From assembly GCA_031551525.1 (NCBI GenBank), contig JAVBNN010000009.1, positions 67,835 to 131,834 on the forward strand: DNA of 64,000 nt. Direction: 5' to 3'. Positions 4,436 to 34,329 of the stretch are shown one piece after another. This stretch comes from Acidaminococcales bacterium (lineage in GTDB: Bacteria > Bacillota > Negativicutes > Acidaminococcales > JAISLQ01). The position numbers and the translations under genes were made by a program. Numbering within the stretch: position 1 is the stretch's first letter; every line of letters begins with the position of its first letter. The notes beneath the pieces were generated by a model. It saw only the letters and a list, made by a program, of their open reading frames with translations. It was not told the origin of the DNA and made no database searches.

Positions 4436-4440
4436 TAGAC

Positions 4441-5376: not shown

Positions 5377-5386
5377 CGGAGGGGGC

Positions 5387-6412: not shown

Positions 6413-6613
6413 TTCAGGTGGTTTTTTTATTCCAGCTGAATCTTAGTAGCACTTATTTTGAAGAAAACACGGTTTTAAGTGATCTTTAGAGAAAAGTAAA
6501 AATGATGTTGTACTTATGCTGTAAAGTGTGAACTTAGCATCGCTTAATATTTTCCGCCTGAAGAGGCAGATGTATTAGTGGCGTTTAGCTAGATAAAACC
6601 GTGCGAGGAGATT

Positions 6614-7360
6614 ATGAACGACTTTATTACAGGACTAGGTTTTCTGACGCGCATCAAATTGAAAAGTCAGGAAATATGGGAAGACGATGCATTTTCCCGC
6701 AGTTTGCCGTGGTTTCCTTTGGTGGGGGCCGTGATAGGACTTTTCCTGGCCGGAATAAACTGGCTTAGTATGCCCTTTTTTACTGACTATATTCGTGTGG
6801 CACTGTTATTGGGTGGGGAGTTATATATAACGGGTGGTCTGTTGTGCGATGGTTTGATGGATACAGCCGACGGCGTATTTTCCGGCCGCAGCCGTGAGCG
6901 CATGCTGGAAATCATGAAAGACAGCGCAGTAGGAGCTAATGGCATGATCTTTTTTGTTGTGCTGATGATTTTTAAAACAGCCTTGTACCTTTCCTTGCCA
7001 GCCAAAACACTCACCTGTATCCTGTTTGTGATGCCAGTAGTCACTCGTCTCATTATCGTGGGGGCAGTGACGCTGTTTCCTTACGCCAGGGCGGAAGGTA
7101 CCGGCCAATTGTTCGTACGCTATGCCCGAAAAGCTTATTTGTATAAGGCGTTGCTGCTAACTGCGCTATTGACCGCATTACCACTGGCTCCAGAGACAAG
7201 TTTCGCCGCTTTGGCCACACTTGCCAGTTCTTGGTATGGCGCCCGCTATCTGGTGAAAATATTGGGCGGATTGACTGGAGATACATATGGTTTTCTGGCG
7301 GAAACCGGTAATGTAACCTATTTGTTTTGCGCATACTTTTATCTGGTTTTTATCCGCTAA
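6614..7360 (+). CDS. cobS: adenosylcobinamide-GDP ribazoletransferase (cobalamin synthase)
   Basis: 248 aa polytopic membrane protein with the LTRI...DGLMDTADG motif. GAGGAG RBS. Confidence 0.9.
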   Translation: MNDFITGLGFLTRIKLKSQEIWEDDAFSRSLPWFPLVGAVIGLFLAGINWLSMPFFTDYIRVALLLGGELYITGGLLCDGLMDTADGVFSGRSRERMLEIMKDSAVGANGMIFFVVLMIFKTALYLSLPAKTLTCILFVMPVVTRLIIVGAVTLFPYARAEGTGQLFVRYARKAYLYKALLLTALLTALPLAPETSFAALATLASSWYGARYLVKILGGLTGDTYGFLAETGNVTYLFCAYFYLVFIR

Positions 7361-7376
7361 GGTTTGGAGGTTACTA

Positions 7377-8384: not shown

Positions 8385-8396
8385 AGGAATGATTTT

Positions 8397-9257
8397 ATGG
8401 TAAAAGTGCCCGGATCTTGCGGCGAATTGGCCCAGGGGAGGATAAATGGGAAGAACATCCTTATAACGTGTCCGGTCAACTGGTATAGCAGCGTGGACAC
8501 GCTAGCCGCAGAACCCGAGTCCGCCGCGAGGATTGAACACTGTAAATCTTACCGTGCGGTGGAACTTTTATTTGAAAAATACGGATATACCCACCCGCTA
8601 ACGCTGAAGATAGAGTCCAGCCTGCCGAGGGGTAAAGGCATGGCCTCCAGCAGTGCCGATATAGCGGCCTCCTGCGCGGCAGCCGCTAAACTGATGGGGA
8701 AAACTCTTGACGTTACGGATATCAAAGACATCGCTTTAGCTATCGAGCCCACTGACGGAATATTTTTCCCCGGAGTGGTGGCCTTTGAATATCTAACAGG
8801 GAATAGCTGCCTGTATTTGGGAAAGCCTCCTCCTATGCGGCTGGCAGTCTTTGATTTCGGAGGAGAAGTGGATACCCTTTCATTCAACAGCCGGATCGAT
8901 TTAGCTGATTTTACGCACGAAAAGCAGCTGGATTTTCAGGAGGCGTACGAGTTGATAAAAGAGGGCGTGGCCGCCGCAAACCCCGTATTGATAGGCAAAG
9001 GCGCTACGATCAGCGCCCTGGCCAATCAAAAGATACTGCACAAACCCCATCTGGAAAAATTCATCATTGAAGGCAACAAATATGGCGCCCTTGGCGTAAA
9101 TGTAGCCCATAGCGGCACGGTAGCTGGCGTTATGTTTGACATGGATATTCTTGAAGGATATGAAGATTGCGTAAAGAGTATACTGAGACTATGTCCGGGC
9201 ATAACTTACCTGGGCAGCGCCGAACTGATCTCCGGCGGAATATTTGACAAGGAGTGA
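8397..9257 (+). CDS. pduX: GHMP-family L-threonine kinase (PduX-like)
   Basis: N-terminal PGSCGELAQG and GHMP motif PRGKGMASSSADIAA. Sits directly upstream of the threonine-phosphate decarboxylase gene. Confidence 0.75.
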   Translation: MVKVPGSCGELAQGRINGKNILITCPVNWYSSVDTLAAEPESAARIEHCKSYRAVELLFEKYGYTHPLTLKIESSLPRGKGMASSSADIAASCAAAAKLMGKTLDVTDIKDIALAIEPTDGIFFPGVVAFEYLTGNSCLYLGKPPPMRLAVFDFGGEVDTLSFNSRIDLADFTHEKQLDFQEAYELIKEGVAAANPVLIGKGATISALANQKILHKPHLEKFIIEGNKYGALGVNVAHSGTVAGVMFDMDILEGYEDCVKSILRLCPGITYLGSAELISGGIFDKE

Positions 9258-9260
9258 ACT

Positions 9261-10343
9261 ATGGCGGCAAACAGGTTTGAGCATGGTGGTAATATTTACG
9301 GGGGTAACAAGGCTTGTGCCGGGTCGCTCATGGATTTTAGCGCCAATATAAACCCCTTTGGCTTGTCGGCTGTGGTTGAACAGGCGATAAAAGAAAACAT
9401 AAAATCGGTGCAGCACTATCCCGACCCGCAGGCTACAGAACTTCGACAGGAGATATGCCGGTTTTATCGCGTAGCGGACGAGCGTCTGGTCTTGGGGAAT
9501 GGCGCCGCAGAACTTTTTTATTTGCTTTGCCACGTATTGCGCCCCGCGACAGTACTTATCCCTGCGCCTTCCTTTAGCGAGTATGAAAGGGCGGCGTTGA
9601 GCTCTGGCGCAAAGATACAGTTTTTTCTTTTAGACCCGTATGACGGTTTTTCTCTTTCGTTTGCGAGGCTAGCCGAAACGTTGCAGGAAGACACACTTAT
9701 CTTTTTCGGCCACCCGAACAACCCGACCGGCAAATTGCTAGACGTAGAGGCTTTTGCAAACTTTGCCAGATTTGCCGCTGAGAAAAATTGTCGCATAATA
9801 GTAGATGAATCTTTTATCGATTTTCTGCCGGACGCGGATAATCACACCTGTCGCTGGCTGGCTGAAAAACAGGAAAACATTTGTATAATACATTCATTGA
9901 CTAAATTTTTTGCTATTCCAGGTTTACGGTTGGGTTTTGGCCTCTTTTCGCCGGAAATGGCCCGAAAAATGCGTGCCGCTGTTGACTGCTGGAATGTGAA
10001 CAGTCTGGCGCAAGTGGCCGGAGTAGCCGCTTTAAAAGATGAAAAACATATTACAAATACGAAAGATAATATTGGCAGGCTGCGCGATCAGCTTTATCAA
10101 GAGCTTTCCCTGTTGCCCGGTCTGAAAATATTTCCATCTGTGGCCAATTTCTTGTTATTGCATCTAAATGCTGAACTTTCATCTAGGCAAATTTGCAGCC
10201 GTATGGACGCAAAAGGAATTTTACTGCGTGACTGCGCCAATTATATAGGTCTTGATGACCGGTATATCCGCATTGCAGTGAGAAGTGAAGCAGAAAACAG
10301 GAAGTTTATCGATACTTTTATTAAGGAGATAAAAAATGGGTAA
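9261..10343 (+). CDS. cobD: L-threonine-O-3-phosphate decarboxylase (class I/II aminotransferase fold)
   Basis: HGGNIYG start, ANINP, GNGAAELF..., HSLTKFFAIPGLRLG (PLP lysine region). Cob operon context. Confidence 0.85.
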   Translation: MAANRFEHGGNIYGGNKACAGSLMDFSANINPFGLSAVVEQAIKENIKSVQHYPDPQATELRQEICRFYRVADERLVLGNGAAELFYLLCHVLRPATVLIPAPSFSEYERAALSSGAKIQFFLLDPYDGFSLSFARLAETLQEDTLIFFGHPNNPTGKLLDVEAFANFARFAAEKNCRIIVDESFIDFLPDADNHTCRWLAEKQENICIIHSLTKFFAIPGLRLGFGLFSPEMARKMRAAVDCWNVNSLAQVAGVAALKDEKHITNTKDNIGRLRDQLYQELSLLPGLKIFPSVANFLLLHLNAELSSRQICSRMDAKGILLRDCANYIGLDDRYIRIAVRSEAENRKFIDTFIKEIKNG

Positions 10344-10953
10344 AATTTTTCTGGTGCGTCATGGACAAACCCTCTGGAACCTGAATATGCGCTTTCAGGG
10401 TTCTTCCGATATAGAACTTTCAGAAGAAGGCGAAGCCCAGGCTGCATTTCTGGCAGAACGCTTGAAAACGGAGAAACTTGCTGCCGTTTATGCCAGTGAT
10501 TTGCGTCGGGCGGTGCATACGGCACAAATTGTGGCAAAGCCGCACGATCTGTCGGTGACGTCTTATGGCGAACTTAGAGAAATCAATTGCGGAGAGTGGG
10601 AAGGACTCAATAGAGTAGAAATAGAGGATAAATACCCCGGGCAACTGGAAAAGTTTTTTTCTGCACCGGCAAATTTTTCTCCGCCCGGTGGAGAAAGTTT
10701 TCACGCAGTAGGCGTACGTTCTTTATCGATTTTTGATACTATAGCGCAAAACCATAAAAATGAAAACATAGTTGTGGTAGCGCATGGCGGCGTTATCCGC
10801 GCCATACTCGGCGGTATCCTTATGATGGATCAGGACGCCTTGTGGCGCATACGTCAGGACAATACGGCATTAAACATAATAAGTATGTTCGAAAAATCGT
10901 ATATTGTAGAATTGATGAATGATATCAGCCATTTATTTATGAAAAATTGTTAA
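10336..10953 (+). CDS. cobC: alpha-ribazole phosphatase (histidine phosphatase family)
   Basis: RHGQTLWN catalytic motif and VVAHGGVIRA. Overlaps cobD by 8 nt. Last gene of the cob operon. Confidence 0.8.
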   Translation: MGKIFLVRHGQTLWNLNMRFQGSSDIELSEEGEAQAAFLAERLKTEKLAAVYASDLRRAVHTAQIVAKPHDLSVTSYGELREINCGEWEGLNRVEIEDKYPGQLEKFFSAPANFSPPGGESFHAVGVRSLSIFDTIAQNHKNENIVVVAHGGVIRAILGGILMMDQDALWRIRQDNTALNIISMFEKSYIVELMNDISHLFMKNC

Positions 10954-20362: not shown

Positions 20363-22036
20363 TTATAATTGATCTTTCAGCACGGCTCCTGTATTGGCCG
20401 AAGAAACCAGTATGGCATATCTGGCCAGATAGCCGCTAGTGACTTTGGGCACCGGTTTCTGCCAGGCACTACGGCGTTTGGTAATTTCTTCTTCTGATAG
20501 CTTGACGGAAAGCTTTCTTGTAGGTATATCTATTTCGATAATGTCACCTTCTTCAATAAAGGCGATAGGGCCGCCTTCCATGGCTTCAGGGGATATATGG
20601 CCGATACATGCTCCCCGTGTAGCGCCGGAGAAGCGTCCGTCGGTCAGGAGAGCCACGTCTTTGTCAAGCCCCATCCCGGCCAGAACAGAGGTCGGGTTGA
20701 GCATTTCCCTCATGCCGGGGCCGCCTTTTGGGCCTTCATAACGAATGACGATGACATCACCTTTGTTTATTTTTTTGCCGACGATAGCGGCAATAGCCTC
20801 GTCTTCCGAGTTGTATACACGAGCCGGACCGGAATGCACCAGCATTTCTTCCGCTACGGCGCTTTCCTTGACGACTGCGCCGTCCGGGGCTAGGTTGCCG
20901 GACAGTACGGCTATGCCGCCGGTGGGGCGGTAGGGGGTTTCGATCGGACGGATGACTTCTTCATTTCGGTTTTGTGCTTTGGCGAGATTTTCACCGACAT
21001 TGTGGCCAGTCACGGTAAGACAGGCTGTTTTAATCAGGTTTTTCTTGCTTAATTCTTTCATTACGGCAGGTATGCCGCCGGCCTCATTAAGCTCCTGGAT
21101 AAAATGCGCGCCGCCGGGGCTCAAAGAAGCAATATAAGGAGTAGTTTGGGCGATTTCATTGAATAGATCAAGCGGCAGTTTGATGCCGGCGTCATGGGCG
21201 ATTGCCGGTAAATGCAGTGTGGTATTGCTGGATCCGCCGATAGCCATATCGACTGTTATAGCATTTTTAAAAGCGTCGATAGTCATTATATCACGGGCGT
21301 TTATACCCTTTTCCAGCATTTGCATTACTTGTTTGCCCGCCGTGCGTGAAAGCGCGGTGCGGGCCCCCTGGTAAGCGGCTGGTATAGTGCCATTGCCGGG
21401 AAGGGCGAGTCCAAGGACTTCTGCCAGACAATTCATCGTATTAGCCGTGTACATGCCGGAACAGGAACCGCAGCCGGGGCAGGCGGAGTTTTCTATCTCT
21501 TCCAGTTCCCCAACAGTTATTTTACCCGCCTCAAAGCGTCCGGCCGCCTCAAAGACATTACTGACGCCGATGTTTTGGCCTTCATACCGTCCGGCCAGCA
21601 TTGGACCGCCGCTGGCCACCACCGCAGGTATGTTCAGGCGAGCAGCCGCCATCAACATGCCCGGAACGATTTTGTCGCAATTGGGTATAAGTACCAGCGC
21701 GTCAAAACAATGCCCCAGTGCTACAGCCTCTATGCTGTCGGCTATAAGTTCGCGGCTGGGCAGGGGATATTTCATGCCATTGTGTCCCATGGCAATGCCA
21801 TCGCAAATACCGATGGCAGGTACCTCCACAGGCACGCCGCCATGCGCCCATACACCTTCTTTTACCGCTTTGGCTATAATATCAAGGTGTAAATGACCTG
21901 GTATGATTTCATTTTGGGCATTGACTATGCCGATCAACGGTTTATCCATATCTTCTCTGGTAAAACCGAGAGCGCTGAAAAGCGACCTGTGTGCGGCCCT
22001 GGTGGAGCCTTTTTTTACATCATCAGAACGTCTCAC
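20363..22036 (-). CDS. ilvD: dihydroxy-acid dehydratase
   Basis: [15 protein letters not shown] start, CDKIVPGM and [15 protein letters not shown] Fe-S motifs. Start trimmed to the GTG at 22036, with AGAGAGG 9 nt upstream. Confidence 0.95.
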
Positions 22037-22105
22037 TAAAAAAACCTCTCTTTCACTGCTGAAAATCCATGCATACCTATTATAAAAATTAAAAATACTT
22101 ATATT

Positions 22106-22133
22106 ATTATAACGCAAGAGAAGGAGTTAGCAA
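22106..22133 (-). promoter_or_regulatory. candidate ilvD promoter
   Basis: On the minus strand: TTGCTA, a 16-nt spacer, then TATAAT, about 70 nt upstream of the ilvD start. Confidence 0.4.
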
Positions 22134-22322: not shown

Positions 22323-23693
22323 ATGAAAGCCTTGCATCATTTGCAGAATCCTTATGCTCAATTTAACACAGATATTCCCGATACTTTTCCAGAAGACTAT
22401 ATGGTACCGCGTGCAGCACAGGCACTTGTGAAATCAGAAGCGTGGACAGACGCCAACCCCATGCTTAATTTGTCGTCTTTTGTAACTACATTTGCTGAAC
22501 CGGAACTCATTGATATTTATCAAAGCGCTATGTTTAAAAACTTTGCCGATCCTGACATGTACCCGCATACTAAAAACATGGAATTTACCTGTGTAAAATG
22601 GTTGCACAATCTCTGGCACGGTCCCAAAGACGCAGAACCGTATGGCGCGGCTACTATAGGTTCTTCCGAGGCCTGCATGTTGGCTGGTCTTGCCCATAAA
22701 TGGAACTGGAAAGAAGCGCGCGAAAAAGCGGGCAAGGATGCTACACGCCCCAACATGGTGACTGGCGGCAACGTACAGATAGTATGGAAAAAATTTCTGC
22801 GTTATTTTGATGTGGAGCCGCGTATCATTCCGCTCAAACCCGGCAACTACCGCTTGACCGCGGAACATCTCGACAAATATGTCGACGAAAACACCATTTG
22901 CGTTGTTGCGATCGCCGGACAGACCTTTACCGGCGAAGATGACGACTTTCAGGAAATACACGATTGGCTGGACGCCTATGAAAAGAAAACTGGTGTCTCC
23001 ATACCTATGCACATAGACGGCGCGTCCGGCGGCTTTGTCAATCCTTTCCTCTATCCCGACTACAAATGGGATTTCCGGTTACCTAGAGTACAGTCGATAA
23101 ACGCGTCCGGCCACAAATATGGCTTGGTGCCGCCTGGGTTGGGCTGGGTCGTTTTCCGTGACCGCAAGATATTTAATGAAAAACTGGTATTTTACGTCAA
23201 CTATCTTGGCGGTGAAGCTCCCACCGCGACCCTTAACTTCAGCAAAGGGTCGTCTACCGTGGTGGCTCAGTACTATCTGATGCTGCGCCTTGGTCGTGCC
23301 GGGTATACCACTATCATGAGAAACACGTTGGATAACGCGAACTATCTGCGCGACCGTCTGGTCAAAACAGGCAAATTTACTATTATGAACAAGACGCAAC
23401 GTATTCCGGTGGTGGCTTTGACTTTGCACAAAGACATCAAAAAATACAATGAATTTGACATTTCCAATAAAGTACGCGAACGTGGCTGGATCCTTTCAGC
23501 ATATTCCATGCCGCCTGACGCGGAAACAGTAAACTCGTTGCGCATAGTCGTGCGTCCGCATGTAAACCACAATCTGATGGAAATACTGGGCGACGACATC
23601 GAAAGAGCATGTGAATTCCTGGAGGAACACGGTGGAAATGCTACCCCGCCCAAACTTCACCCGGCGGAAACACACTCTGTCGCCAAGTGTTAA
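22323..23693 (+). CDS. gadB: glutamate decarboxylase (PLP-dependent, group II)
   Basis: NLSSFVTTFAEPE, YPHT...LWHGP and the PLP-lysine motif SINASGHKYG match the Gad family. Confidence 0.9.
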   Translation: MKALHHLQNPYAQFNTDIPDTFPEDYMVPRAAQALVKSEAWTDANPMLNLSSFVTTFAEPELIDIYQSAMFKNFADPDMYPHTKNMEFTCVKWLHNLWHGPKDAEPYGAATIGSSEACMLAGLAHKWNWKEAREKAGKDATRPNMVTGGNVQIVWKKFLRYFDVEPRIIPLKPGNYRLTAEHLDKYVDENTICVVAIAGQTFTGEDDDFQEIHDWLDAYEKKTGVSIPMHIDGASGGFVNPFLYPDYKWDFRLPRVQSINASGHKYGLVPPGLGWVVFRDRKIFNEKLVFYVNYLGGEAPTATLNFSKGSSTVVAQYYLMLRLGRAGYTTIMRNTLDNANYLRDRLVKTGKFTIMNKTQRIPVVALTLHKDIKKYNEFDISNKVRERGWILSAYSMPPDAETVNSLRIVVRPHVNHNLMEILGDDIERACEFLEEHGGNATPPKLHPAETHSVAKC

Positions 23694-23765: not shown

Positions 23766-25475
23766 ATGCATGAATTAGCTCAATTTTTAGCGGCAAACCC
23801 ATATATCCTGCTATTTGTGGTGCTTGCCTTGTCTATTTTTGTCGGCAAGCTGAGTATAAAAGGTTATGGGCTTGGCATGGTTGCGGCAGCGATCATCGTC
23901 GGTTGCGGCGTAGCCATCTGGGGAGCCACGCAAGGCGTAAAATTTAAACTGGATGAATTTACCAAATCGCTATTTTATTACCTTTTTATGTATGGAGTAG
24001 GTCTCCGTGTAGGGCCTTCTTTTATCAACAGTCTTAAAGGAGACGGCCTTAAATTTGTAATATTGGCTCTTGTATGCAGCCTCCTCGGCATGGGTATAGT
24101 AGTGGTGGGCGATGTTATTTTAGATTTACCGCTCGGCGCCGCTGGCGGCATGCTGGCAGGGTCGCAGACTATGTCAGCTGCCATAGGCAGTGCAGAGGAA
24201 GCTGTCCGCCAGGGTGCAGTAAAGTTGCCGCCCGGCACGACTTCTGAACAAGTCAGCGCCATGATAGCGCTTTGTTATGGTATCACATATATATGGGGTA
24301 CGGTCGGCATTATCCTCATTTGCAAATATTTACCGCGTTGGTGGGGGATTGATGCAGTAGCCGCCGCCAAAGAATATGAGGTGCAGCACGGCGTTCCCAA
24401 TGTCGATAATGTCGACTTGACCGGTTACCAGCCGACGGGCCTTAGAGCCTACAAGCTGGCCGACGAGCAGGTGTTTGGAAAAACTATCGAAGAATTCCGT
24501 AAAATTTACCCGGTCTACCATATCATTAATATAGAACGCAGCGGACAGAATATAATGGTAGATGAAAAAGCAGTCATGCAAAAAGACGACATCGTCGTTC
24601 TTGGTGGCAAACTGGAAGACCTGACTGCTAATATGGGCGTGCTCGGGCCAGAGGTGGCGGATGCCAAAGCCCTCAACATACCGCTCGACCAGGCGGAGAT
24701 ACTTGTTACGAGCGGACAGGTGGCTGGACATGCCTTGAAAGAATTTGCCAATTCCGAGGTAGCCGGTCAGGTGCAGGTCACCAGGATAGAAAGAGGCGGC
24801 GTGCCTATACCTGTCGGCACGGAAACCGTACTGCAAAAACGTGACGTTATTTTCCTGGTCGGCTTGAAGACCGCCGTTAACCGCATAGGAGAACGGATAG
24901 GCAGAGTGGCCCGCCATGATACTTCTACAGACCTGTTTACTCTTTCGATCGGTATGATATTGGGCTTTTTGATCGGACTCATACAGGTGCCGGCCTTTGG
25001 TGCCAATATCGGGTTGGGTAATGCCGGCGGACTTTTGGTTTCCGGTATAGTGGTATCGTCCGTTTCATCTAGGCTTCGTTACTTTGGCAATACGCCAAAT
25101 GCGGCCAGAAATATACTTGAAGACATGGGTCTGTTGGTATTTGTCGCTATTGTCGGTGTCAATGCCGGAGCAGACATGCTTAGCCAACTGACTGGTATGC
25201 TGGCGCTGAAGATTTTTGTGGTAGGTTTTTTTGCCTGCAGCATTCCTCCTTTTATCGTTTGGATACTCGGCCTTTATGTGTTCAAGATCAACCCTGCAGT
25301 ACTTATGGGCGGTACGGCAGGAGCGCGTTCGCATTCCGGTCCGGCTCGTGAAGCGGCCAAAGAGATAAACAGTTCTGTGCCATGGATAGGGTTTCCCGTA
25401 CCGTATGCCGTGTCCGGCATACTGCTCACGGTGTTCGGTTTCGTTAGTATGGTACTGGCAAATATGTTTAAATAA
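23766..25475 (+). CDS. AAE-family (AspT/YidE/YbjL) transporter with two central TrkA-C domains
   Basis: 569 aa: an N-terminal TM bundle, two RCK_C-like repeats (..DDIVVLGG.., ..RDVIFLVGL..) and a C-terminal TM bundle. GGAGGG RBS. Confidence 0.85.
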   Translation: MHELAQFLAANPYILLFVVLALSIFVGKLSIKGYGLGMVAAAIIVGCGVAIWGATQGVKFKLDEFTKSLFYYLFMYGVGLRVGPSFINSLKGDGLKFVILALVCSLLGMGIVVVGDVILDLPLGAAGGMLAGSQTMSAAIGSAEEAVRQGAVKLPPGTTSEQVSAMIALCYGITYIWGTVGIILICKYLPRWWGIDAVAAAKEYEVQHGVPNVDNVDLTGYQPTGLRAYKLADEQVFGKTIEEFRKIYPVYHIINIERSGQNIMVDEKAVMQKDDIVVLGGKLEDLTANMGVLGPEVADAKALNIPLDQAEILVTSGQVAGHALKEFANSEVAGQVQVTRIERGGVPIPVGTETVLQKRDVIFLVGLKTAVNRIGERIGRVARHDTSTDLFTLSIGMILGFLIGLIQVPAFGANIGLGNAGGLLVSGIVVSSVSSRLRYFGNTPNAARNILEDMGLLVFVAIVGVNAGADMLSQLTGMLALKIFVVGFFACSIPPFIVWILGLYVFKINPAVLMGGTAGARSHSGPAREAAKEINSSVPWIGFPVPYAVSGILLTVFGFVSMVLANMFK

Positions 25476-25644: not shown

Positions 25645-28600
25645 TTGAGCTTTGATTATTGCCTCGTACCTGAAAAAAATGTTGGAAATGTTCTGTGTAT
25701 GGATTCGGTGCAGTTGACCGATGCAGAAAAGGCCGTTTTTGCAGAACTTAAAATATTAAAAATTGATATCTCCAGTACTTCTAATGACTGGTGCATCACA
25801 CTGGACAGCCGCTATTCGGCAGATGGCAGTTTACTGAATAAAATAGCGGCTTCTTTTTGTCAGTCATATAATCTCTCTAGTGTATGCTTTCAAACATCCG
25901 ATACAGAAGAAAACTGGCTTCTCCAAGCAAAAAATTATATGACAAAATATATAGAATCTGATTGTCCCGATATAGCGCATGTTTTACGCATGGGAGAGTG
26001 GACGGAACACGCGGAGACACTTTACATACCAGTAGAAAGTACCTTTGCCCTTGCCAGAATAAAACAAAAAAAGGTTGATAAAATATTTAACGATCTTTTA
26101 AAAATTAAATTTCCTAAAAAAGTAGCACTAGAATTCATTGTTTCGCCTATATCACGTGAACCTGTTGCAGACAATATGGTTACTGAAGAATACCTGGCTG
26201 CACTGGCTGTGGTAGAAGAAGAAAACAGCGGTGGCAAAACTATAAAAAACGGTGTGCTTTTTGGACGTTCCTTTAAAGGGCAGGTGCGCCCAATCAATTC
26301 AATACAAGAAGAAGAACCCAAAGTTATCGTTGAGGGTACTATACACCGCTTTGACCTGCGCGAAATGCGGACAGGCAGTTGCGCCCTTAAATTCGATATA
26401 TTTGACACAACGGATGGTTTACAGGCTAAAATAATTTTTGACAGTAAAGAAAAATACGTACAGGAAGCTAAATGGCTCAAAGCAGGCCAATATGTCCGAA
26501 TAATGGGAAGGGTCCAGCAGGACCGCTTTGAACGCAATGAACTAGTTCTCACACCCAAAAACATTATGTTGGTTGAAAAAATTCCCCGTTTTGATAATGC
26601 TTCTGAAAAACGCGTAGAATTGCACGCTCATACTAAAATGAGCGCTCTGGATGCTGTAATGTCTACTAAAGAATATATCCAATGTGCCACCGACTGGGGG
26701 CATCAGGCCGTAGCTATCACTGACCACGGCGTGGTGCAGGCTTTCCCGGAAGCATATGAGACGGCAAAACAGCTCAAAAGAGAAAAAGGAGTAGATATAA
26801 AAATAATTTATGGTATGGAAGGCTATCTAGTCGAGCATGAGGAAGACAAGGAAGCGTGGCATATCATAATCCTGGCGGCCAGCCAAAAAGGCCTGCAAAA
26901 CCTCTACCGGTTGGTATCTTTTTCCCATCTTAAATATTTTTACAAGCGTCCGCGCATACCGCGCAAACTGCTTGAAGAATATCGGGAAGGGCTTATTTTA
27001 GGATCGGCCTGCGAGGCGGGCGAACTGTACCAAGCAGTATTGAACAGTGAACATCCAGAGAAAATACGTGACATAGCTTCTTTTTACGATTATCTGGAAG
27101 TACAGCCTAACGGCAATAACGCCTTTTTATTGCGGACCGGCAGGGTAGCGGACGAAGAAACACTTTGTGCTATCAATAAAAAAATTATTGCTCTGGGCCA
27201 GGAACTGGGAAAACGAGTGGTTGCTACCTGTGACGTGCATTTTTTAAAACCGGAAGACGACGTGTATCGGCGCATATTGCAAGGCGGGCAGGGGTATTCG
27301 GATGCTGACCAGCAGCCGCCGATCTATTTTCGAACTACTGCCGAAATGTTTGAAGAGTTCAAATATCTGGACCAGGAAACTGCCCATGAAATAATCGTCA
27401 AAAACCCTGTTGAGATTGCCGCATCCATAGCGTCGCTGCAACCGATACCGGACGAGCTTTATTCGCCGCAGATACCGGGCGCGGCCGACGAAGTATCCAA
27501 TATGTCCTATTGCACGGCAAAAAAACTCTATGGGGATATCCTGCCGCAAATAGTCAGTGAGCGACTCGATATGGAACTCAAATGCATCACCGGCAACGGT
27601 TTTTCCGAACTATATCTTATAGCGCACAAATTGGTAAAAAAATCTCTGGATGACGGATATATAGTCGGCTCCCGAGGTTCGGTCGGCTCATCTTTGGTCG
27701 CTACGATGATGAATATTACTGAAGTCAATCCGCTGCCGCCGCATTATCGCTGCATACAATGCAATTATAGCGAATTTATTGAAGACGGCAGTGTTGGTTC
27801 GGGGTTTGATCTGCCGGAAAAAGCATGCCCACACTGTCAAAGCAAAATGACGCGCGACGGGCAAAATATACCTTTTGCGGTTTTTCTTGGTTTTAAAGGT
27901 GATAAAGTGCCGGACATCGATCTTAACTTTTCCGGCGAATACCAAGCCAAGGCGCACAAGTATACCGAAGAACTTTTTGGCCGGGCCAACGTTTTTCGTG
28001 CCGGAACCATTTCTACTATTGCGGAAAAAACGGCCGGCGGTTTCGCCCGTAAATATTACGAAGAAAAAGGCATGAGCGTCCGCTCGGCTCATGTAAACGG
28101 GGTAGCTGTCGGCTGCGAAGGAGTAAAACGCACTACCGGGCAACATCCGGGCGGCATCATGGTGGTGCCGCGCGATATGGACGTGCATTTCTTTACACCC
28201 TTGCAGCGCCCTGCCGATGACCGCGACTCTAATACCGTGACCACACACTTTGATTATCATTCTATAAATGACCGGCTAGTAAAACTAGATATCCTGGGAC
28301 ATGATGACCCGACTGTTATAAAATTGCTCGAAGAGCTGACCGGGGTAAAGATAAAAGACATCCCTTTCAATGACCCAGCAACCATGTCGCTCTTTCGCTC
28401 TACAGAGGCTCTTGGCGTATTGCCTGCTGCTTTGGGTTCCAATGTTGGTACTTTCGGCATTCCGGAATTTGGCACCCGTTTTGTAAGACAGATGCTGGAA
28501 GATACAAACCCCGCTTGTTTTAGCGATCTTGTACGTATAAGCGGGTATTCACACGGGGAAAATGTTTGGCTGGATAATGCCCAAGACCTGATAAAAAATA

Positions 28601-29361
28601 ACATTGCCAAAGTAGAAGAAACCATTTCATCGCGCGATGACATAATGATCTACCTGATGAAACAGGGTGTGGAGGCACTTACTGCTTTTAACACCATGGA
28701 AGATGTAAGAAAAAATAAATTTAATATAAACGAAGAAAAACGCAAAAAAGAAGGAAAGAAAACCTTTGAGGAAACAATGCGGGAAAATAATGTACCTGAA
28801 TGGTATATAGAGTCCTGCAAAAAAATAAAATATATGTTCCCTAAAGCCCACGCAACCGCCTATGTTATGATGGCTTATCGCATAGCCTGGTGCAAAGTGC
28901 ATTACCCCAAGGAATTTTATGCGGCTTACTTTAGTATACGGGCAGATGATTTTGACGCAGACCTGATATTGGAAGGGGCCGAATCGATTAAAAATCACTT
29001 AAAATCTATAGAGCAAAAGGGAAGAGAAGCCAGTGCAAAAGAAAAAAGCCTGGCCACTGTTCTTGAATTAGCTTATGAAATGAATCTGCGCGGACTGGAA
29101 TTTCACAGAGTAGATATTTATCAGTCCCACCCTAAACGCTTCCTGATAAAAGAAGGAGCCTTGTTGCCGCCGTTGACCGCGTTGGCCGGCTTGGGTCAAA
29201 ATGCCGCTTTGAATATAGCCACAGCCAGAAAAGAAGGTGAATTTATTTCGCGGGATGATTTACGCGTACGAGCGGGAATATCAAAGACCATCATCGAACT
29301 TCTGGGTAAGCATGGTTGCCTTGACGGCCTGCCGGAAAGCAATCAGGTGTGTTTATTTTGA
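25645..29361 (+). CDS. polC: DNA polymerase III PolC-type alpha subunit, lacking the inserted exonuclease domain
   Basis: OB fold, PHP (VELHAHT, ITDHG), GSRGSVGSS, zinc module PHYRCIQC..CPHC, DIDLNF, KRTTGQHPGG, KIKYMFPKAHA and a C-terminal HhH region are all colinear with Bacillus PolC. Length is only 1238 aa. TTG start after AGGGGG. Confidence 0.9.
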   Translation: MSFDYCLVPEKNVGNVLCMDSVQLTDAEKAVFAELKILKIDISSTSNDWCITLDSRYSADGSLLNKIAASFCQSYNLSSVCFQTSDTEENWLLQAKNYMTKYIESDCPDIAHVLRMGEWTEHAETLYIPVESTFALARIKQKKVDKIFNDLLKIKFPKKVALEFIVSPISREPVADNMVTEEYLAALAVVEEENSGGKTIKNGVLFGRSFKGQVRPINSIQEEEPKVIVEGTIHRFDLREMRTGSCALKFDIFDTTDGLQAKIIFDSKEKYVQEAKWLKAGQYVRIMGRVQQDRFERNELVLTPKNIMLVEKIPRFDNASEKRVELHAHTKMSALDAVMSTKEYIQCATDWGHQAVAITDHGVVQAFPEAYETAKQLKREKGVDIKIIYGMEGYLVEHEEDKEAWHIIILAASQKGLQNLYRLVSFSHLKYFYKRPRIPRKLLEEYREGLILGSACEAGELYQAVLNSEHPEKIRDIASFYDYLEVQPNGNNAFLLRTGRVADEETLCAINKKIIALGQELGKRVVATCDVHFLKPEDDVYRRILQGGQGYSDADQQPPIYFRTTAEMFEEFKYLDQETAHEIIVKNPVEIAASIASLQPIPDELYSPQIPGAADEVSNMSYCTAKKLYGDILPQIVSERLDMELKCITGNGFSELYLIAHKLVKKSLDDGYIVGSRGSVGSSLVATMMNITEVNPLPPHYRCIQCNYSEFIEDGSVGSGFDLPEKACPHCQSKMTRDGQNIPFAVFLGFKGDKVPDIDLNFSGEYQAKAHKYTEELFGRANVFRAGTISTIAEKTAGGFARKYYEEKGMSVRSAHVNGVAVGCEGVKRTTGQHPGGIMVVPRDMDVHFFTPLQRPADDRDSNTVTTHFDYHSINDRLVKLDILGHDDPTVIKLLEELTGVKIKDIPFNDPATMSLFRSTEALGVLPAALGSNVGTFGIPEFGTRFVRQMLEDTNPACFSDLVRISGYSHGENVWLDNAQDLIKNNIAKVEETISSRDDIMIYLMKQGVEALTAFNTMEDVRKNKFNINEEKRKKEGKKTFEETMRENNVPEWYIESCKKIKYMFPKAHATAYVMMAYRIAWCKVHYPKEFYAAYFSIRADDFDADLILEGAESIKNHLKSIEQKGREASAKEKSLATVLELAYEMNLRGLEFHRVDIYQSHPKRFLIKEGALLPPLTALAGLGQNAALNIATARKEGEFISRDDLRVRAGISKTIIELLGKHGCLDGLPESNQVCLF

Positions 29362-29399: not shown

Positions 29400-29507
29400 A
29401 CGTATAGAAAATTCAAGTTGACGTTGCCAAGAGTGGGTTTTGAGCCCACTCTTTCAGCTTATTTATATGAACGGATGGTTTTAACGCGGGTTTGGGGAGG
29501 TTTTTGC
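29400..29507 (+). promoter_or_regulatory. rimP leader with attenuator-like hairpin
   Basis: Hairpin AAGAGTGGG ... CCCACTCTT (29429-29453) sits in the ~100-nt leader. Firmicute rimP-nusA operons are known to carry a NusA-responsive leader terminator. Confidence 0.4.
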
Positions 29508-29957
29508 TTGCGCAAAGAAAGTGTGGAACAACTGGTAGAAGAAATGGTGTTGCCATTGTTGGCAGAAACAACTTTGGAACTGGTAGATGTCGAATATGTC
29601 AGGGAGCGGGATTGGTATTTGCGAGTTTTTCTCACTAAAACCGGAGGCCTTGAGATAGATGACTGCCAGGCGATAAGTGAACGACTGGCCGTTTTACTGG
29701 ACGAAAAAGATTTTATCAAAGAAAGATATTATCTTGAAGTATCTTCACCCGGCCTTGACCGTGTATTGAGAAAAGACCGTGATCTTATCCGTCATAAGGG
29801 CGATAAGGTGGAAGTAAAGACCAAAGAAGAAAAAAAAGCTGCGGTAGGTGTATTGGGTGATTTTACTGAAGAAACCTTGCAACTTACCGTTAGCGGAGAA
29901 CATAAATCAATAGAAAGAAAAAACATAATTTCAGTTAGATTGTATCTGGAATTTTGA
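29508..29957 (+). CDS. rimP: ribosome maturation factor RimP
   Basis: VEEMVLPLL...LELVDVEY..E....LRVF...GG..IDDC...S, then LEVSSPGLDR. TTG start 7 nt after GGGGAGG. Confidence 0.85.
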   Translation: MRKESVEQLVEEMVLPLLAETTLELVDVEYVRERDWYLRVFLTKTGGLEIDDCQAISERLAVLLDEKDFIKERYYLEVSSPGLDRVLRKDRDLIRHKGDKVEVKTKEEKKAAVGVLGDFTEETLQLTVSGEHKSIERKNIISVRLYLEF

Positions 29958-29995
29958 TTTATCATACTTATGATAAAAACAGGGGGAAATAAATA

Positions 29996-31054
29996 GTGAA
30001 TTCAGAATTATTGAGCGCGTTCAGGGAACTGGGCAAAGAAAAAGGTATTGTGCCGGAGATACTGTTTGACGCAGTAGAAGCAGCGCTTATTGCCGCCTAC
30101 CGAAAAAACTTCGGTTCGTCACAAAATGTACGTGTAGAGCTTGACCGAAATAAAGGCGATATACATGTGTACGCCCGCAAAATCGTGGTAGATAAAATCG
30201 AAGACGGGTACCTCGAGATATCCCTCGAAGAGGCACAAAAAATTGACCCGCGCTATCAACTCGACGATATTATCGAAATAGAAGTTACGCCAAAAAACTT
30301 TGGCCGCATTGCAGCGCAAACAGCCAAACAAGTAGTGGTGCAACGCATAAGGGAAATTGAACGGGGCCTGGTATACGAGAAATTTTCCAATAGAGAGAGC
30401 GACATCGTTACCGGTATGGTACAACGTACTGAACAGAAAAATGTTTATATAGACCTTGGCAAAGCCGAGGCTGTTCTTGCATCAAATGAACAGATACCGG
30501 GGGAACATTACGCCCATCTCGATAGAATAAAAACTTACATAATCGAAGTCAAAAAAACCAATAAAGGGCCGCAGATCATGGTTTCCCGGACGCATCCGGG
30601 ACTGTTGAAACGACTTTTTGAGTTGGAAGTGCCGGAAATACACGATGGATTAGTGGAGATAAAGTCGGTAGCCAGAGAGCCCGGAATGCGTTCCAAGATA
30701 GCGGTATATTCTAAAGATGAAAACGTCGATCCGGTTGGTTCGTGCGTAGGTCACAAGGGTATGCGCGTTCAAACCATAGTAAATGAACTGCGCGGTGAAA
30801 AAATTGATATAGTGAAATACAGCGGTGACCCTGAACAGTATGTTGCCAATGCCCTTAGCCCCGCGAAAGTGGTGTCGGTGGAAGCGAACCCTGCCGAAAA
30901 AATATGCCGCGTAGTTGTTCCGGACTACCAATTGTCGCTGGCTATTGGCAAAGAGGGGCAAAATGCCAGGTTGGCCGCTAAACTTACCGGTTGGAAGATA
31001 GATATAAAAAGCGAATCCCAGGCTACTGCGGAGGAGGCACGTGAATTGGCGTGA
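29996..31054 (+). CDS. nusA: transcription termination/antitermination factor NusA
   Basis: 352 aa with S1 and two KH domains ([33 protein letters not shown]). Confidence 0.95.
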
Positions 31055-31317
31055 AAACAAAAAAAACACCACAAAGAATGTGTGTTGGCTGCCAGCAAAT
31101 GAAAGACAAACGTGAGCTCTTGCGCATAGTGCGTACGCCGGAGGGCGAAATATTGGCCGATAAAACTGGTAAAAAAGCAGGCCGCGGAGCATATGTTTGC
31201 CCGCATGAAGTTTGTATCAAAAAAGCATGGAAAGAAAAGCGTTTGGAAAAAGCATTGGAAAAAAGCATAAACTCTGATGTTTACGAGACGCTTTTGGCAG
31301 GTTTATCTTCGCAATGA
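31051..31317 (+). CDS. ylxR: YlxR/RnpM family RNA-binding protein (DUF448)
   Basis: [11 protein letters not shown]....K.EL.R.V and GRGAY.C motifs. Overlaps nusA by 4 nt. Confidence 0.85.
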
Positions 31318-31631
31318 CTGAGCAGCGTCTGCTGTCGGCTCTGGGACTGGCACAAAAAGCTGGCAAGCTTGCGTCCGGAGATACGGCAGTACAAATGGCA
31401 GTAAAATCGGGAAAAGCTAAATTCCTTCTAATAGCAGCGGATGCGGCAGAAAACTCACGGAAAAATATGAAAAATATGGCAGAATCATATGGCATACCTG
31501 TTGATGAATGCGCAAGCCGGGAACTTTTGGGCAGCGCAATAGGCAGGGCGCAACGGTCAGCGGTTGCAGTGCTGGATAAGGGTTTTGCTACTATGATAAA
31601 GAAGACCTTGGAAAACGCCGACAAGAGATAA
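31314..31631 (+). CDS. ylxQ: L7Ae-family RNA-binding protein YlxQ
   Basis: 105 aa starting [13 protein letters not shown]. Conserved position between ylxR and infB. Confidence 0.8.
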
Positions 31632-31647
31632 CATTGGGGGTGGCTGG

Positions 31648-34329
31648 ATGCCAAAGTATAGAGTATTTGAACTTGCCAAAGAATTTGGCGCAACGAGCAA
31701 AGTTATCCTGGATATTTTAGCCAGGAACGAAATGCCCGTAAAAAATCATATGAGTAGTGTAGACGACAACGGACGTGAACTTATTGTCAGGACTTTTGCA
31801 CGCAAAAGTGATGCCACAGCACCGGAAAAAGCACCGATTCCGCCTAAGCCGGAACCGGTAAAAACTATCGTGGAACCGGCGCCAATTGCTACTGCAGCTA
31901 AACCGCCTGTTAAAAAACCGGAAATTCCGGTCCCTAGCCCGACTGTGCCTCCCTTTAAACGGGAGCAGCCTAAAACTCGTATAGAACAACATCAAAAAAT
32001 CGAGCGCCCTGTTGAAATCAGGCCGCAGCAAGCAAAACAGGTCGTGCCGCAACACACCGGAGAAAAGCGTCCTTTCCAGCCTGTAGCGCGTCCCGCATCC
32101 GGCCCGCAGCAAACCGCGAGGCCGCCTCAACGGATAAATCCGGTACAACAAGGGCAACCACCGGCTCATGGACAACGGCCGGATTTTCGTCCACAGCAGC
32201 AGCGCCCGCAAACAGACCGGCCTGGTTTCTCACGCCCACAAACAGACAGGCCCGCTTTCTCTCATCCACAAACAGACAGATCAAATATTACGCGGCCAGC
32301 CGGCGGTTTCTCGCGCCCACAGTCTGGCAGCGATCAACCCAGACCTTTTAACAATGCACCTAGGGGAGAGCAACAACCTTTCAATAAAAAACCGGCCAAT
32401 AAATTCCCTGAACCTGCAACCAGCACTACCGGCAATAAACCCAATAATAAATTTAACAATTACCCAAAAAAGAAAAACAAAATGCCGGAGAAAAAGCAGG
32501 AACGGACGGATTTTACTGATCGTGGCAAAATGTCCAAACATGCCAAGGCGGGAATGTTCGTACAACCGCAGGTAAATGTGCAAAAACCGACTAATGTGGA
32601 AATAGCGGAATTTATTTCAGTAAAAGATTTTGCTACCATTATGAAACGCGAAGTTGCGGAAGTAATAAAGTGTCTGCTACACTTGGGCGTTATGGCCACT
32701 ATAAACCAGGAGATCGATTTTGATACGGCATCTTTGGTTGGAAACGAGCTTGGGGTAGAGGTTAAAGCATTGCCGCCAGAACAAGATCCAACCGAAATAC
32801 CGGAAACAGACGACGATCCGCAAAAACGCGTTTTGAGGGCGCCGGTAGTTACCATTATGGGGCATGTTGACCATGGCAAGACGTCCCTGCTAGACACCAT
32901 CAGAAAGGCCAATGTCACGGCGCGCGAAGCTGGCGGAATCACCCAGCATATTGGCGCATACCAAGTCAATCATCAAGGTAAAAAAATAGTCTTTCTTGAT
33001 ACGCCCGGGCATGAGGCGTTCACTTCCATGCGCGCCCGCGGCGCAAAAGTAACCGATGTGGCTATATTGGTGGTAGCGGCGGACGATGGTGTTATGCCGC
33101 AGACAGTAGAAGCTATAAACCATGCTAAATCGGCTGAAGTCCCTATCATCGTTGCTATAAATAAAATGGACAGACCTAATGCTGCCCCCGACCGTGTAAA
33201 ACAGCAACTTACCGAATACGGCCTGCAAGCGGAAGATTGGGGCGGACAAACCATAATGGTACCGGTATCTGCCCACAAGCAAACAGGGATAGCCGAGTTG
33301 CTGGAAATGATCCTCTTAGTAGCGGAAATGCAGGAATTGACCGCAAATCCCAATCTGCCGGCACAAGGAACCATCATAGAAGCGCAACTGGATAAAGGAC
33401 GCGGTCCGGTAGCCACCGTATTAGTGCAAAAAGGCACCCTCAGGGTTGGCGATACGATCATTGCCGGAACCGCATACGGAAAAGTGCGCGCCATGGTCAA
33501 TGAGCGGGGCGAAAACTTAAAAAAAGCCGGTCCGTCGACTCCAGTTGAAGTATTGGGGCTCTCAGACGTTCCGTTGGCGGGCGATATCCTTAATGCAACT
33601 GATGAAAAAATTGCCCGTGCGATTGCCGAAAAACGCCAGGCCAAGCGGCGTATAGAAGAAATGCAGCAAAGTCAAAAAGTATCGCTCGATGATATTTTCC
33701 GGCAGATACAGGATGGTAAACTCAAGGAACTCAATATCGTGGTCAAAGCTGACGTACAGGGTACCATAGAAGCTTTGCGTCAGGCCCTTGAAGGGATACG
33801 CAACGAAGAAGTAAAAGTGGTGGTCGTACATTCAGGCGTAGGCGCTATAAATGAGTCCGACGTCATGCTCGCGTCGGCAGCCAATGCGCTTATTATCGGC
33901 TTTAATGTTCGTCCGGACGCCAACGCGCGCAAAACAGCGGAGACCGAGAAGGTGGATATTGAGACTTACCGGGTTATTTACGATGCGATAAATGATGTGG
34001 AGGCCGCTATTAAAGGTATGCTGGCCCCGAAGTTTAAAGAGGTCGTCCAGGGCAGAGTGGAAGTGCGGCAAGTCATCTCCATATCCAAAATGCTTATTGC
34101 CGGCTGCTATGTACAGGAAGGCAAGATTACCCGTTCTTCCAAAGTACGTCTTTTACGCAACGGTATTGTTGTACACGAGGGTGAACTTGAGTCTTTGCGC
34201 CGTTTTAAGGATGACGTAAAAGAAGTCGCGGCAGGCTATGAATGCGGACTTACTATAGATAAATTCCGTGATGTCAAAGAAGGAGATGTCATCGAAGCTT
34301 ATATCATGGAAGAAATAAAACAGGAATAA
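31648..34329 (+). CDS. infB: translation initiation factor IF-2
   Basis: 893 aa. N-terminal [12 protein letters not shown]-type segment, P/Q-rich linker, GTPase ([21 protein letters not shown]), C-terminal domains. Confidence 0.95.
32203..32292 (+). repeat. three tandem 30-bp coding repeats inside infB (RPQTDRPxFS units)
   Basis: CGCCCGCAAACAGACCGG..., CGCCCACAAACAGACAGG... and CATCCACAAACAGACAGA... occur at an exact 30-nt period. Confidence 0.8.

Follow-up and report, generated by a model that had tools for sequence, protein, structure and literature searches.

Does a PolC-type DNA polymerase III alpha subunit that lacks its exonuclease represent a natural enzyme or a damaged one, and, if it is natural, what would proofread for it? 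This question is raised by the polC gene of the 64-kb window (the whole stretch of DNA analysed here), which lies at positions 25645..29361 on the forward strand, like all the features described below, and encodes a 1238-aa Exo-less variant of PolC as judged from its open reading frame (ORF) and from NCBIfam and Pfam profiles. The gene begins with a TTG codon, a start that we consider correct because it is preceded by an AGGGGG ribosome-binding site and because the resulting N-terminus, MSFDYCLVPE, is kept in relatives with the pattern M-x-(F/I)-(D/E)-Y-C-L. The protein passed both curated PolC equivalog cut-offs, scoring 1501.7 bits against NF001688 (cut-off 873) and 1365.1 bits against TIGR01405 (cut-off 1043.45), with the match to each profile falling into two stretches.

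The domain order of the window PolC is that of PolC enzymes, with an N-terminal domain, an OB fold on the N-terminal side of PHP, a polymerase core, helix-hairpin-helix (HhH) motifs, and a C-terminal clamp motif; Pfam placed the OB fold at residues 227-308, PHP at 325-481, Pol at 619-797, the finger domain at 889-1035, and HhH at 1150-1232. The PolC-specific N-terminal region (residues 1-214, 25645..26286) was delimited in a full-length alignment with Negativicutes PolCs and is without a Pfam match, whereas relatives match PF14480 or PF11490 there. The OB fold (26323..26568; PF01336, E=5.5e-6) forms a beta-barrel in an AF2 model. The PHP domain (E=1.1e-36) was divided by alignment and the Pfam match into an N-terminal part (26617..26832) bearing ligands H327, H329, D336, H361, and E392, and by alignment into a C-terminal part (26857..27240) bearing H406, C456, D530, and H532. 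The polymerase core, comprising palm, thumb, and fingers (27499..28749; DNA_pol3_alpha, E=4.4e-55; DNA_pol3_finger, E=7e-25), carries the catalytic motifs PDIDLNF at residue 756 (D757, D759) and KLDILGHDDPT at ~880-890 (D882), whose aspartates we take to be the counterparts of E. coli D401, D403, and D555. Within the core, a motif search located the zinc module CIQC...CPHC (C703-C706 and C728-C731, 27751..27837), and residues 701-737 gave a weak match to the Pfam family Zn_ribbon_8. The catalytic motif columns and zinc cysteines are almost invariant in our homologue alignment A1. Tandem HhH motifs (29092..29340; HHH_6, E=5.7e-12) precede a C-terminal QVCLF (29344..29358), which the alignment of C-termini identified as a predicted beta-clamp-binding motif of the form Qxx(L/M)F. 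QxxLF ends canonical and Exo-less PolCs alike, and its function as the PolC clamp motif is taken from the PolC literature (PMC3919608). Thus, the layout that an earlier note had proposed from the letters of the DNA (N-terminal domain, OB fold, PHP, core with CxxC...CxxC, and HhH) was recovered by Pfam, NCBIfam, and motif searches. With its motifs, zinc module, HhH, and clamp motif kept, such an Exo-less PolC would act as a clamp-tethered replicative polymerase.

What sets the protein apart is found in the middle of the PHP domain. Canonical PolC carries there a DEDDh exonuclease (Exo) of ~205 aa; this integral domain, a 'hallmark' of canonical PolC, is absent from the window PolC. In a MAFFT alignment, the PHP ligands E392 and H406 are separated by 13 residues in the window PolC compared to 202-216 residues in canonical PolCs, whose insert between these ligands bears the motifs DxETTG, AHNAxFD, and HHRAxxDA. 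At the canonical Exo site, the alignment and the AF2 model both show an eight-residue loop, EHEEDKEA (residues 397-404, 26833..26856), which is the only connection between the flanking PHP segments and lies exactly where the earlier note had put it; residues 386-426 of the window PolC read KIIYGMEGYLVEHEEDKEAWHIIILAASQKGLQNLYRLVSFS. The AF2 model of residues 215-620 (pLDDT 89) builds the junction as a strand (386-396), the eight-residue loop, and a second strand (405-411). Consistent with this picture, the second NCBIfam stretch paired residues 402-1238 of the query with profile positions 612-1444, so that ~200 profile positions were skipped.

Searches for the exonuclease itself agreed with the alignment. 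No Pfam match to RNase_T was found in the window PolC even at E<=1, the Exo I (DxE), Exo II (D), and Exo III (Hx4D) motifs of the RNase_T fold were not found in the ORF or the window, and a motif search confirmed that D-x-E-T-T-G occurs nowhere in the polC ORF. A custom HMM trained on the Exo domains of 64 canonical PolCs, which gave 291-313 bits with positive controls, detected no Exo domain in six frames of the whole 64 kb (best E=0.31), so that neither Pfam nor the custom HMM detected the in-ORF exonuclease that would have overturned the earlier reading. A frameshifted or relocated Exo domain was rejected because the custom HMM was empty both in the window and within +-10 kb of 14 other Exo-less polC genes. 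For long Exo-less PolCs (e.g. P0161, 1475 aa), a shift of the domain to the N-terminus was likewise rejected, since the Exo HMM had no match.

The missing domain might reflect artefact or decay, in the form of an assembly deletion or of a degenerate extra polC beside a full-length one. The reading frame of polC is intact, however, and stop codons crowd both alternative frames at the junction. The best 120 homologues of the window PolC, which come from independent assemblies, are all Exo-less, and none contains PF00929. They include proteins from Sporomusa, Pelosinus, Thermosinus, Acetonema, and Propionispora, as well as Veillonellales and Acidaminococcales MAGs, and some of the Exo-less homologues are encoded on contigs of multi-megabase size from cultured Sporomusa and Pelosinus. 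Since this architecture is shared by the best 120 homologues, including those on the multi-megabase contigs of cultured species, a local assembly deletion can be ruled out. The nearest database relative is 74% identical, and the nearest named relative belongs to Acidaminococcales. The survey of PolC lengths that the earlier note had called for gave 1217-1254 aa, with the same Exo-less layout, for 117 of the best 120 homologues; the other three are partial proteins. The linker between the Glu and His ligands is likewise constrained in length: of 133 Exo-less sequences, 121 have 12-14 residues there.

The genomic setting points the same way. Downstream of polC lies an operon (29418..34329, from Pfam and ORFs) of rimP, nusA, a ylxR-like gene (31051-31317), an L7Ae-like gene (31314-31631), and infB, and polC-rimP-nusA-infB are arranged identically in the closest relative (L081). 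Since a position upstream of rimP-nusA-ylxR-L7Ae-infB is the canonical locus, the gene is an orthologous chromosomal polC rather than a stray paralogue. Functional motifs are all intact in this syntenic copy, and Negativicutes are classed as PolC+DnaE1 rather than 2xPolC organisms (PMC3919608), which further argues against a degenerate second copy. The explanation by artefact or decay is thus effectively refuted. The earlier proposal of a natural, in-frame, exo-less PolC rather than a frameshift holds, given that no exonuclease was detected by profiles and that the architecture is common to the best 120 homologues; the window PolC is almost certainly encoded by the regular chromosomal polC of the organism, which has the natural form without Exo that is characteristic of Negativicutes and of some Clostridia.

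We examined how this form arose in a neighbor-joining (NJ) tree with Kimura correction. The clade holding the window PolC was monophyletic in 100/100 NJ bootstraps, while all Exo-less PolCs were jointly monophyletic in 0/100, and their distribution required 5-8 Fitch changes. Moreover, the Exo site is occupied in ~13 PolC clusters by an insert of 142-291 aa whose DEDDh residues are destroyed; when these degenerate inserts were scanned alone, their recognition as RNase_T by Pfam was marginal or nil. Because Exo-less PolCs are polyphyletic and pseudo-exonuclease intermediates exist, the Exo deletion appears to be a secondary loss that is ancient in the window clade. In the ancestral PolC, the loop joining strands 3 and 4 of the PHP barrel would have housed a DnaQ-type (DEDDh) exonuclease as an insert; in the clade ancestor, the whole insert would have been excised at its boundaries with the rest of PolC unchanged, leaving a short hairpin with 12-14 residues between the Glu and His ligands of PHP. 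Such a loss may have been tolerated because clostridial-type PolC+DnaE1 replisomes would start with redundant proofreaders, namely PolC Exo, PolC PHP, and DnaE1 PHP. We also considered whether Exo loss was accompanied by PHP remodelling marked by convergent substitutions, which we rejected since independent lineages shared just two trivial columns; nothing thus indicates that PHP was reshaped to take on a new function.

If the gene is genuine, its proofreading must be sought elsewhere, and the choice is still rightly the one set out in the earlier note, between PHP acting in cis and a DnaQ-like protein acting in trans. For the latter, a separate DnaQ-like (DEDDh) protein would dock on PolC, being either the former Exo domain split off as a product of its own or an epsilon-like subunit of the kind used by E. 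coli Pol III. Candidates for such a role would be plentiful in general, as a 2026 survey (PMC12926913) reports abundant stand-alone DnaQ homologues (mean >3 per proteome) as well as the ability of the B. subtilis PolC Exo domain to proofread for DnaE in trans, and the label 'polC 1' on some PolC entries from Anaerosporomusa hints at a second PolC-like, often exonuclease-only, gene. However, all frames of the 64-kb window were free of DEDDh-like ORFs, as were the +-10 kb around polC at 14 other Exo-less loci, which argues that there is no adjacent split Exo gene, and the same survey assigns Clostridia no stand-alone DnaQ proofreader (PMC12926913). We therefore regard proofreading in trans as unlikely.

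Proofreading in cis would instead use the PHP domain itself, with 3'-5' excision carried out by its trinuclear metal site as in Mycobacterium DnaE1 and Thermus Pol III alpha. Sources that define PHP exonucleases give a nine-ligand criterion, HHDHEH[C/H]DH (PMC12926913, PMC5636811). Judged by alignment, this signature is complete in the window PolC as HHDHEHCDH; the earlier note had asked whether all nine ligands persist, and each of the residues listed above for the two PHP parts does. D336 and D530 correspond to D23 and D226 of the Mtb enzyme. Of 166 Exo-deleted sequences, 162 retain the same signature. When representatives of 50%-identity clusters were compared, PHP was intact in 41 of 46 Exo-deficient compared to 54 of 96 Exo-intact PolCs (odds ratio 6.4, Fisher p=6e-5, with kinship between sequences ignored). 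Since the nine ligands are intact here and are kept more often in Exo-deficient PolCs, PHP is the most likely cis proofreader. The sampled Bacilli-type PolCs carry a D->N change at PHP ligand 8, and a Geobacillus PolC with one PHP ligand mutated is reportedly without PHP exonuclease activity (PMC5636811).

Several points temper this reading. PHP was intact in 43/43 of the clostridial-type Exo+ PolCs sampled, which suggests that ligand conservation is a background trait of the lineage rather than a response to Exo loss. Conservation of PHP may also have structural reasons, as Barros et al. (2013) are said to have noted. Furthermore, the loop adjoining the PHP site between E392 and H406 is about 8-9 residues long in the window PolC; the corresponding loop has 9 residues in the inactive E. 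coli PHP, 18 in Taq, and 29 in Mtb, where it lines the groove for single-stranded DNA (PMC5636811). By this measure, the window PolC lacks the extended groove-lining loop of PHP exonucleases and resembles the catalytically dead E. coli PHP. Our literature searches found no report of PHP exonuclease activity for any PolC. Weighing these points, we consider it modestly probable that PHP acts in cis as the proofreader of the window PolC.

Alternatively, the PolC might not proofread at all, and its fidelity would come from DnaE1, through its own intact PHP and either bulk synthesis or editing, and from mismatch repair, with PolC restricted in its role. Timinskas et al. raise the same possibility and report that Exo-less PolCs are confined to genomes with PolC+DnaE1, that the DnaE1 of Clostridia and Negativicutes shows all the properties of a stand-alone replicase, and that some Clostridia have DnaE1 only (PMC3919608). 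The repeated loss or decay of Exo also suggests that it is dispensable in a PolC+DnaE1 background. No dnaE was found within the 64-kb window, where purL is the only other ORF of >1000 aa. Against a restricted role, PolC of the window clade is very strongly conserved (67% mean column identity, with catalytic, zinc, and clamp motifs invariant), polC stays in a core housekeeping operon, and the PHP ligands are practically never lost after Exo loss, which would be unexpected if the nuclease were unneeded. A PolC without any proofreading is, in our judgement, rather improbable.

Taken together, a natural Exo-less chromosomal polC combined with PHP proofreading in cis is a fairly probable explanation of the locus as a whole and the best of those considered. 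Extended to other organisms, PHP may be the sole cis proofreader of PolC in Negativicutes and several clostridial lineages, the DnaQ-type domain being disposable wherever PHP is intact and having been deleted or turned into a pseudo-exonuclease at least 5-8 times; we offer this generalization tentatively, as it falls a little short of probable. If true, PHP-only PolC would mirror the accepted trend of DnaQ replacing a decaying PHP. To our knowledge, PolC+DnaE1 replisomes have never been reconstituted, and we know of no one who has shown how an Exo-less PolC attains fidelity. The Negativicutes PolC offers a ready natural 'delta-Exo' enzyme for asking if PolC PHP really proofreads. The answer matters for the fidelity with which abundant anaerobes of the gut and mouth replicate, and for the general account of how one of the two proofreaders, PHP or DnaQ, comes to take the place of the other over evolution.

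The architecture itself is already known, having been catalogued for exactly this lineage by Timinskas, Balvociute, Timinskas & Venclovas (NAR 2014), who found that Exo-less PolCs make up 6% of all PolCs and 16% of those in PolC+DnaE1 systems and occur only in Clostridia and Negativicutes, always with DnaE1 (PMC3919608). The window PolC shares with these proteins an identical NTD-OB-PHP-Pol-HhH arrangement without the Exo insertion, a conserved PHP metal site, and the same taxonomic setting, its closest named relatives being Negativicutes. It differs from them in no respect of kind and adds only a new sequence, making our finding a correct re-discovery rather than a new kind of system. That paper left the function of these proteins open and included neither pseudo-Exo intermediates nor the number of independent losses (PMC3919608).

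Compared to canonical PolCs (B. subtilis, S. aureus, G. kaustophilus, and E. faecium 9QPC), the window PolC has a core that is 55-58% identical and the same domain order, zinc module, catalytic motifs, QxxLF, and gene neighbourhood, but it lacks the DEDDh exonuclease that these enzymes hold between PHP strands 3 and 4, and it has the full HHDHEHCDH whereas the sampled Bacilli PolCs have N at ligand 8. Mtb DnaE1 and Thermus Pol III alpha resemble it in having a complete nine-ligand trinuclear site and no integral DEDDh domain. They are DnaE-type enzymes, however, with a C-terminal OB fold and no PolC N-terminal domain, and their PHP groove loop is 29 aa (Mtb) or 18 aa (Thermus type) long compared to about 9 residues in the window PolC; PHP exonuclease activity has been demonstrated in these enzymes, while we infer it for the window PolC. 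The closest parallel in form is provided by engineered delta-Exo PolCs (3F2B/3F2C/3F2D and Sau-PolC-dNdExo), which carry a short linker at the same Exo site, reading ...RRLGSGSGPFH... in 3F2B. This delta-Exo Geobacillus PolC was the best PDB match to the window PolC in both sequence and structure, with one continuous alignment of 1165 bits. Engineered delta-Exo PolCs fold and are rapid polymerases, with a kpol of 330 per second for the S. aureus enzyme (PMC3656037). The delta-N delta-Exo versions are Bacilli-derived laboratory deletions made for crystallography or kinetics and are without the N-terminal domain, and the Gka PolC construct has one mutated PHP ligand (PMC5636811), whereas the window PolC is a natural, full-length enzyme.

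The polC ORF occupies positions 25645-29361 on the forward strand and encodes a 1238-aa protein. Its TTG start is right, because an AGGGGG ribosome-binding site lies upstream and the N-terminus (MSFDYCLVPE) is conserved among relatives (MGFEYCLVPE, MSIDYCLIPD). Pfam placed the OB fold at residues 227-308 and the PHP domain at residues 325-481, and also detected DNA_pol3_alpha, the finger domain and HHH_6, while both NCBIfam PolC equivalogs scored above their cut-offs by a wide margin (1501.7 bits vs 873 and 1365 vs 1043). The protein has both polymerase motifs (PDIDLNF and KLDILGHDDPT), a CIQC…CPHC zinc module and, at its C-terminus, the clamp motif QVCLF; all of these are essentially invariant across the clade. 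Compared with most Negativicutes PolCs, it has two small lineage-specific insertions that together account for the length of 1238 aa vs about 1220: ~7 residues (LKREKGV) that follow a PHP helix ending in ETAKQ (residues ~371-382, window 26755-26790), and a Lys/Glu-rich stretch of ~10 residues (NINEEKRKKEGKK) in the fingers (residues ~1016-1026, about 28690-28720).

The DEDDh exonuclease (Exo) that canonical PolC carries within its PHP domain is missing from this protein. The junction reads KIIYGMEGYLV-EHEEDKEA-WHIIILAASQKGLQNLYRLVS, with the linker EHEEDKEA at nt 26833-26856 on the forward strand, exactly where the earlier note had placed it. RNase_T was not found in the protein by Pfam even at E<=1, and DxETTG is absent throughout the ORF. 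Each NCBIfam equivalog matched in two stretches, the second pairing query residues 402-1238 with profile positions 612-1444, so that about 200 profile positions are skipped. When the protein was aligned using MAFFT with 80 PolCs encoded on genome contigs and 119 homologues from the database, the PHP ligands Glu and His were 13 residues apart, compared to 202-216 in canonical PolCs, whose insert bears DxETTG, AHNAxFD and HHRAxxDA. A custom Exo HMM trained on 64 canonical Exo domains from this alignment scored control loci at 291-313 bits and gave no match to the 64-kb window in any of its six reading frames, the best E being 0.31. Thus, the observation of an Exo-less PolC holds in every detail.

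The proposal that this is a natural gene rather than a frameshift was likewise borne out. Both alternative frames are closed at the junction, and PF00929 was found in 0/120 of the best database homologues (53-74% identity), 117 of which are 1217-1254 aa long, the remaining three being partial proteins. The named homologues are Negativicutes (Sporomusa species, Pelosinus, Thermosinus, Acetonema, Propionispora, Anaeroselena, Dendrosporobacter, and Veillonellales and Acidaminococcales MAGs), and several are encoded on multi-megabase contigs of cultured species. The nearest relative, in GCA_031552765.1 (74% identity), has the gene order polC-rimP-nusA-ylxR-L7Ae-infB-rbfA-nrnA-truB-ribF-rpsO-pnp, with which the window agrees, indicating an orthologous housekeeping polC. 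We rejected an artefact or a decaying paralogue on the basis of these homologues, the synteny and the intact motifs; the Exo-less PolC is real, natural and ancient.

Upstream of polC, this relative's locus has a conserved dxr-rseP-ispG-proS block in place of the window's ilvD (20363-22117, reverse strand), PLP-dependent group II decarboxylase (22323-23693, forward) and, directly upstream, an aspartate:alanine exchanger-family transporter (Asp-Al_Ex/TrkA-C; 23766-25475, forward). Together, the decarboxylase and the antiporter look like an energy module, driven by decarboxylation, that was inserted beside polC. Elsewhere, a cobamide lower-ligand and nucleotide-loop cluster (2343-10953, forward) comprises cobU, cobQ, cobD, DBI_PRT, cobS, a second DBI_PRT, a GHMP kinase, an aminotransferase and a histidine phosphatase; two of its genes (5387-6412 and 7377-8384, forward) encode CobT-like phosphoribosyltransferases and are a putative counterpart of the ArsAB pair, which activates phenolic lower ligands in Sporomusa. 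A 644-aa ORF within a housekeeping gene run (60710-62644, forward) matched no Pfam family at E<=1e-5, its sole match being a sub-threshold TPR_2 near residue 564-587.

Exo-less PolCs were also found at genome loci beyond the Negativicutes-like clade, in Dehalobacterium, Desulfitispora, Thermosyntropha, a 'Clostridiaceae' MAG group and Lachnospiraceae (e.g. Cuneatibacter, Lachnoclostridium). In a neighbour-joining tree (988 core columns, 82 sequences after redundancy reduction at 80% identity), the window's clade was monophyletic in 100/100 bootstraps and the pooled Exo-less PolCs in 0/100, and Fitch parsimony on Exo state required 5-8 changes. Linker length and sequence vary among Exo-less lineages, with the window's clade keeping to 12-14 residues. 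Among the best 150 PolC clusters from a HMMER search of 1.84 billion cluster representatives (query residues 215-1238), 33 have the insert deleted, and ~13 carry a 142-291-aa insert at the same site with canonical flanks (GYL[VI][DE]DG… …K/R-x-x-Y) and destroyed DEDDh residues, e.g. FVAVSLKTTG or FVSIHIGTTG where the canonical sequence is FVVFDLETTG. For most of these inserts, Pfam gave no RNase_T match or only a weak one, and the HHDHEHCDH PHP site is intact in all representatives listed (P0141, P0144, P0146, P0148, P0179, P0182, P0187, P0191, P0216, P0239 and P0176). They look like pseudo-exonuclease intermediates between canonical and Exo-less forms, and the existence of intact, degenerate and deleted states favours repeated secondary losses over an ancestral Exo-less state. 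Because the tree is neighbour-joining only and lacks a DnaE root, this direction is inferred, not proven. For Pol III alpha subunits, a 2026 survey reports that DnaQ is not the proofreader undergoing inactivation (PMC12926913).

Four short or fragmentary PolC-like representatives (P0225, P0202, P0251 and P0258; 854-1178 aa) lack the insert and also have degenerate PHP sites, such as HRSLENTDQ or HHDSERCNR; these could represent additional copies, polymerases of mobile elements or genes in decay. JBLNBO010000054.1, a contig labelled as an Ignavibacteriales MAG, encodes an Exo-less PolC of clostridial type that shares 54% identity with the window protein. PolC is not known from that phylum, and the contig is probably a mis-binned Firmicute.

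How such a PolC might proofread is suggested by its PHP site, where the alignment revealed all nine metal ligands (H327, H329, D336, H361, E392, H406, C456, D530 and H532). The PHP exonuclease of Mtb DnaE1 has these same ligands at its trinuclear site (PMC5636811), and the HHDHEH[C/H]DH signature is the published criterion for an 'active' PHP (PMC12926913). The signature is intact in 162/166 Exo-deleted, 12/13 Exo-degenerate and 97/162 Exo-intact PolCs; among 50%-identity representatives, it is intact in 41/46 Exo-deficient vs 54/96 Exo-intact proteins (odds ratio 6.4, Fisher p=6e-5, uncorrected for phylogeny). The class-level split is clean, since ligand 8 is Asn (HHDHEHCNH) in 21/21 sampled Bacilli PolCs and Asp in 43/43 sampled clostridial-type Exo+ PolCs. 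This is consistent with the report that Geobacillus PolC, with one ligand mutated, has no PHP exonuclease activity (PMC5636811). Exo loss is thus confined to PolCs with a complete PHP, which thereafter is almost never lost. Given that clostridial PolC+DnaE1 systems have been described as having 'three active proofreaders' (PMC12926913), this pattern fits a PHP that would serve as cis proofreader, a role we consider somewhat probable for the window PolC. A separate DnaQ-like protein acting in trans seems unlikely; no DEDDh gene was found in the 64-kb window, nor in the 10 kb on either side of polC at 14 further Exo-less loci.

However, several observations temper the PHP-in-cis reading. The PHP site is intact in 43/43 sampled clostridial-type Exo+ PolCs, so its conservation predates Exo loss, and no convergent substitutions accompany the loss. 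The loop flanking the site is only ~9 residues long, like that of the inactive E. coli PHP, whereas the Taq loop has 18 and the Mtb loop 29 (PMC5636811), and our literature searches found no published nuclease activity for any PolC PHP. Timinskas et al. speculated that DnaE1 may be the main replicase (PMC3919608); that PolC does not proofread, with fidelity borne by DnaE1 and mismatch repair, strikes us as doubtful.

The Exo-less architecture has been described before, as have its taxonomic range and the question of function that it raises: Timinskas et al. found an internal exonuclease in PolC+DnaE1 systems 'except in 16%' (Table 2) and noted strong conservation of PolC PHP ligands (PMC3919608), and the same group's 2026 survey mapped proofreaders over 3070 genomes (PMC12926913). 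The window PolC is thus a further member of a known group, 74% identical to its closest relative. Our additions are modest, namely how many times Exo was independently lost, the finding of pseudo-Exo intermediates among metagenomic PolCs and the reciprocal PHP/Exo retention pattern; the chief value of a natural Exo-less PolC is as a subject for testing PHP exonuclease activity.

When residues 215-620 of the window PolC were modelled with AF2 (pLDDT 89, pTM 0.82), the linker formed an 8-residue loop joining two barrel strands. The model's top PDB match was 3F2B (410 aligned columns), with 9QPC at 610 columns. By sequence, too, the top match was 3F2B, a Geobacillus PolC construct in which a GSGSG linker replaces the Exo domain, in one unbroken 1165-bit alignment, whereas the alignment to 9QPC, a full-length PolC from E. 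faecium, is split in two. Since delta-Exo constructs are fast polymerases, the engineered S. aureus enzyme having a kpol of 330 per second (PMC3656037), removal of Exo is structurally benign.
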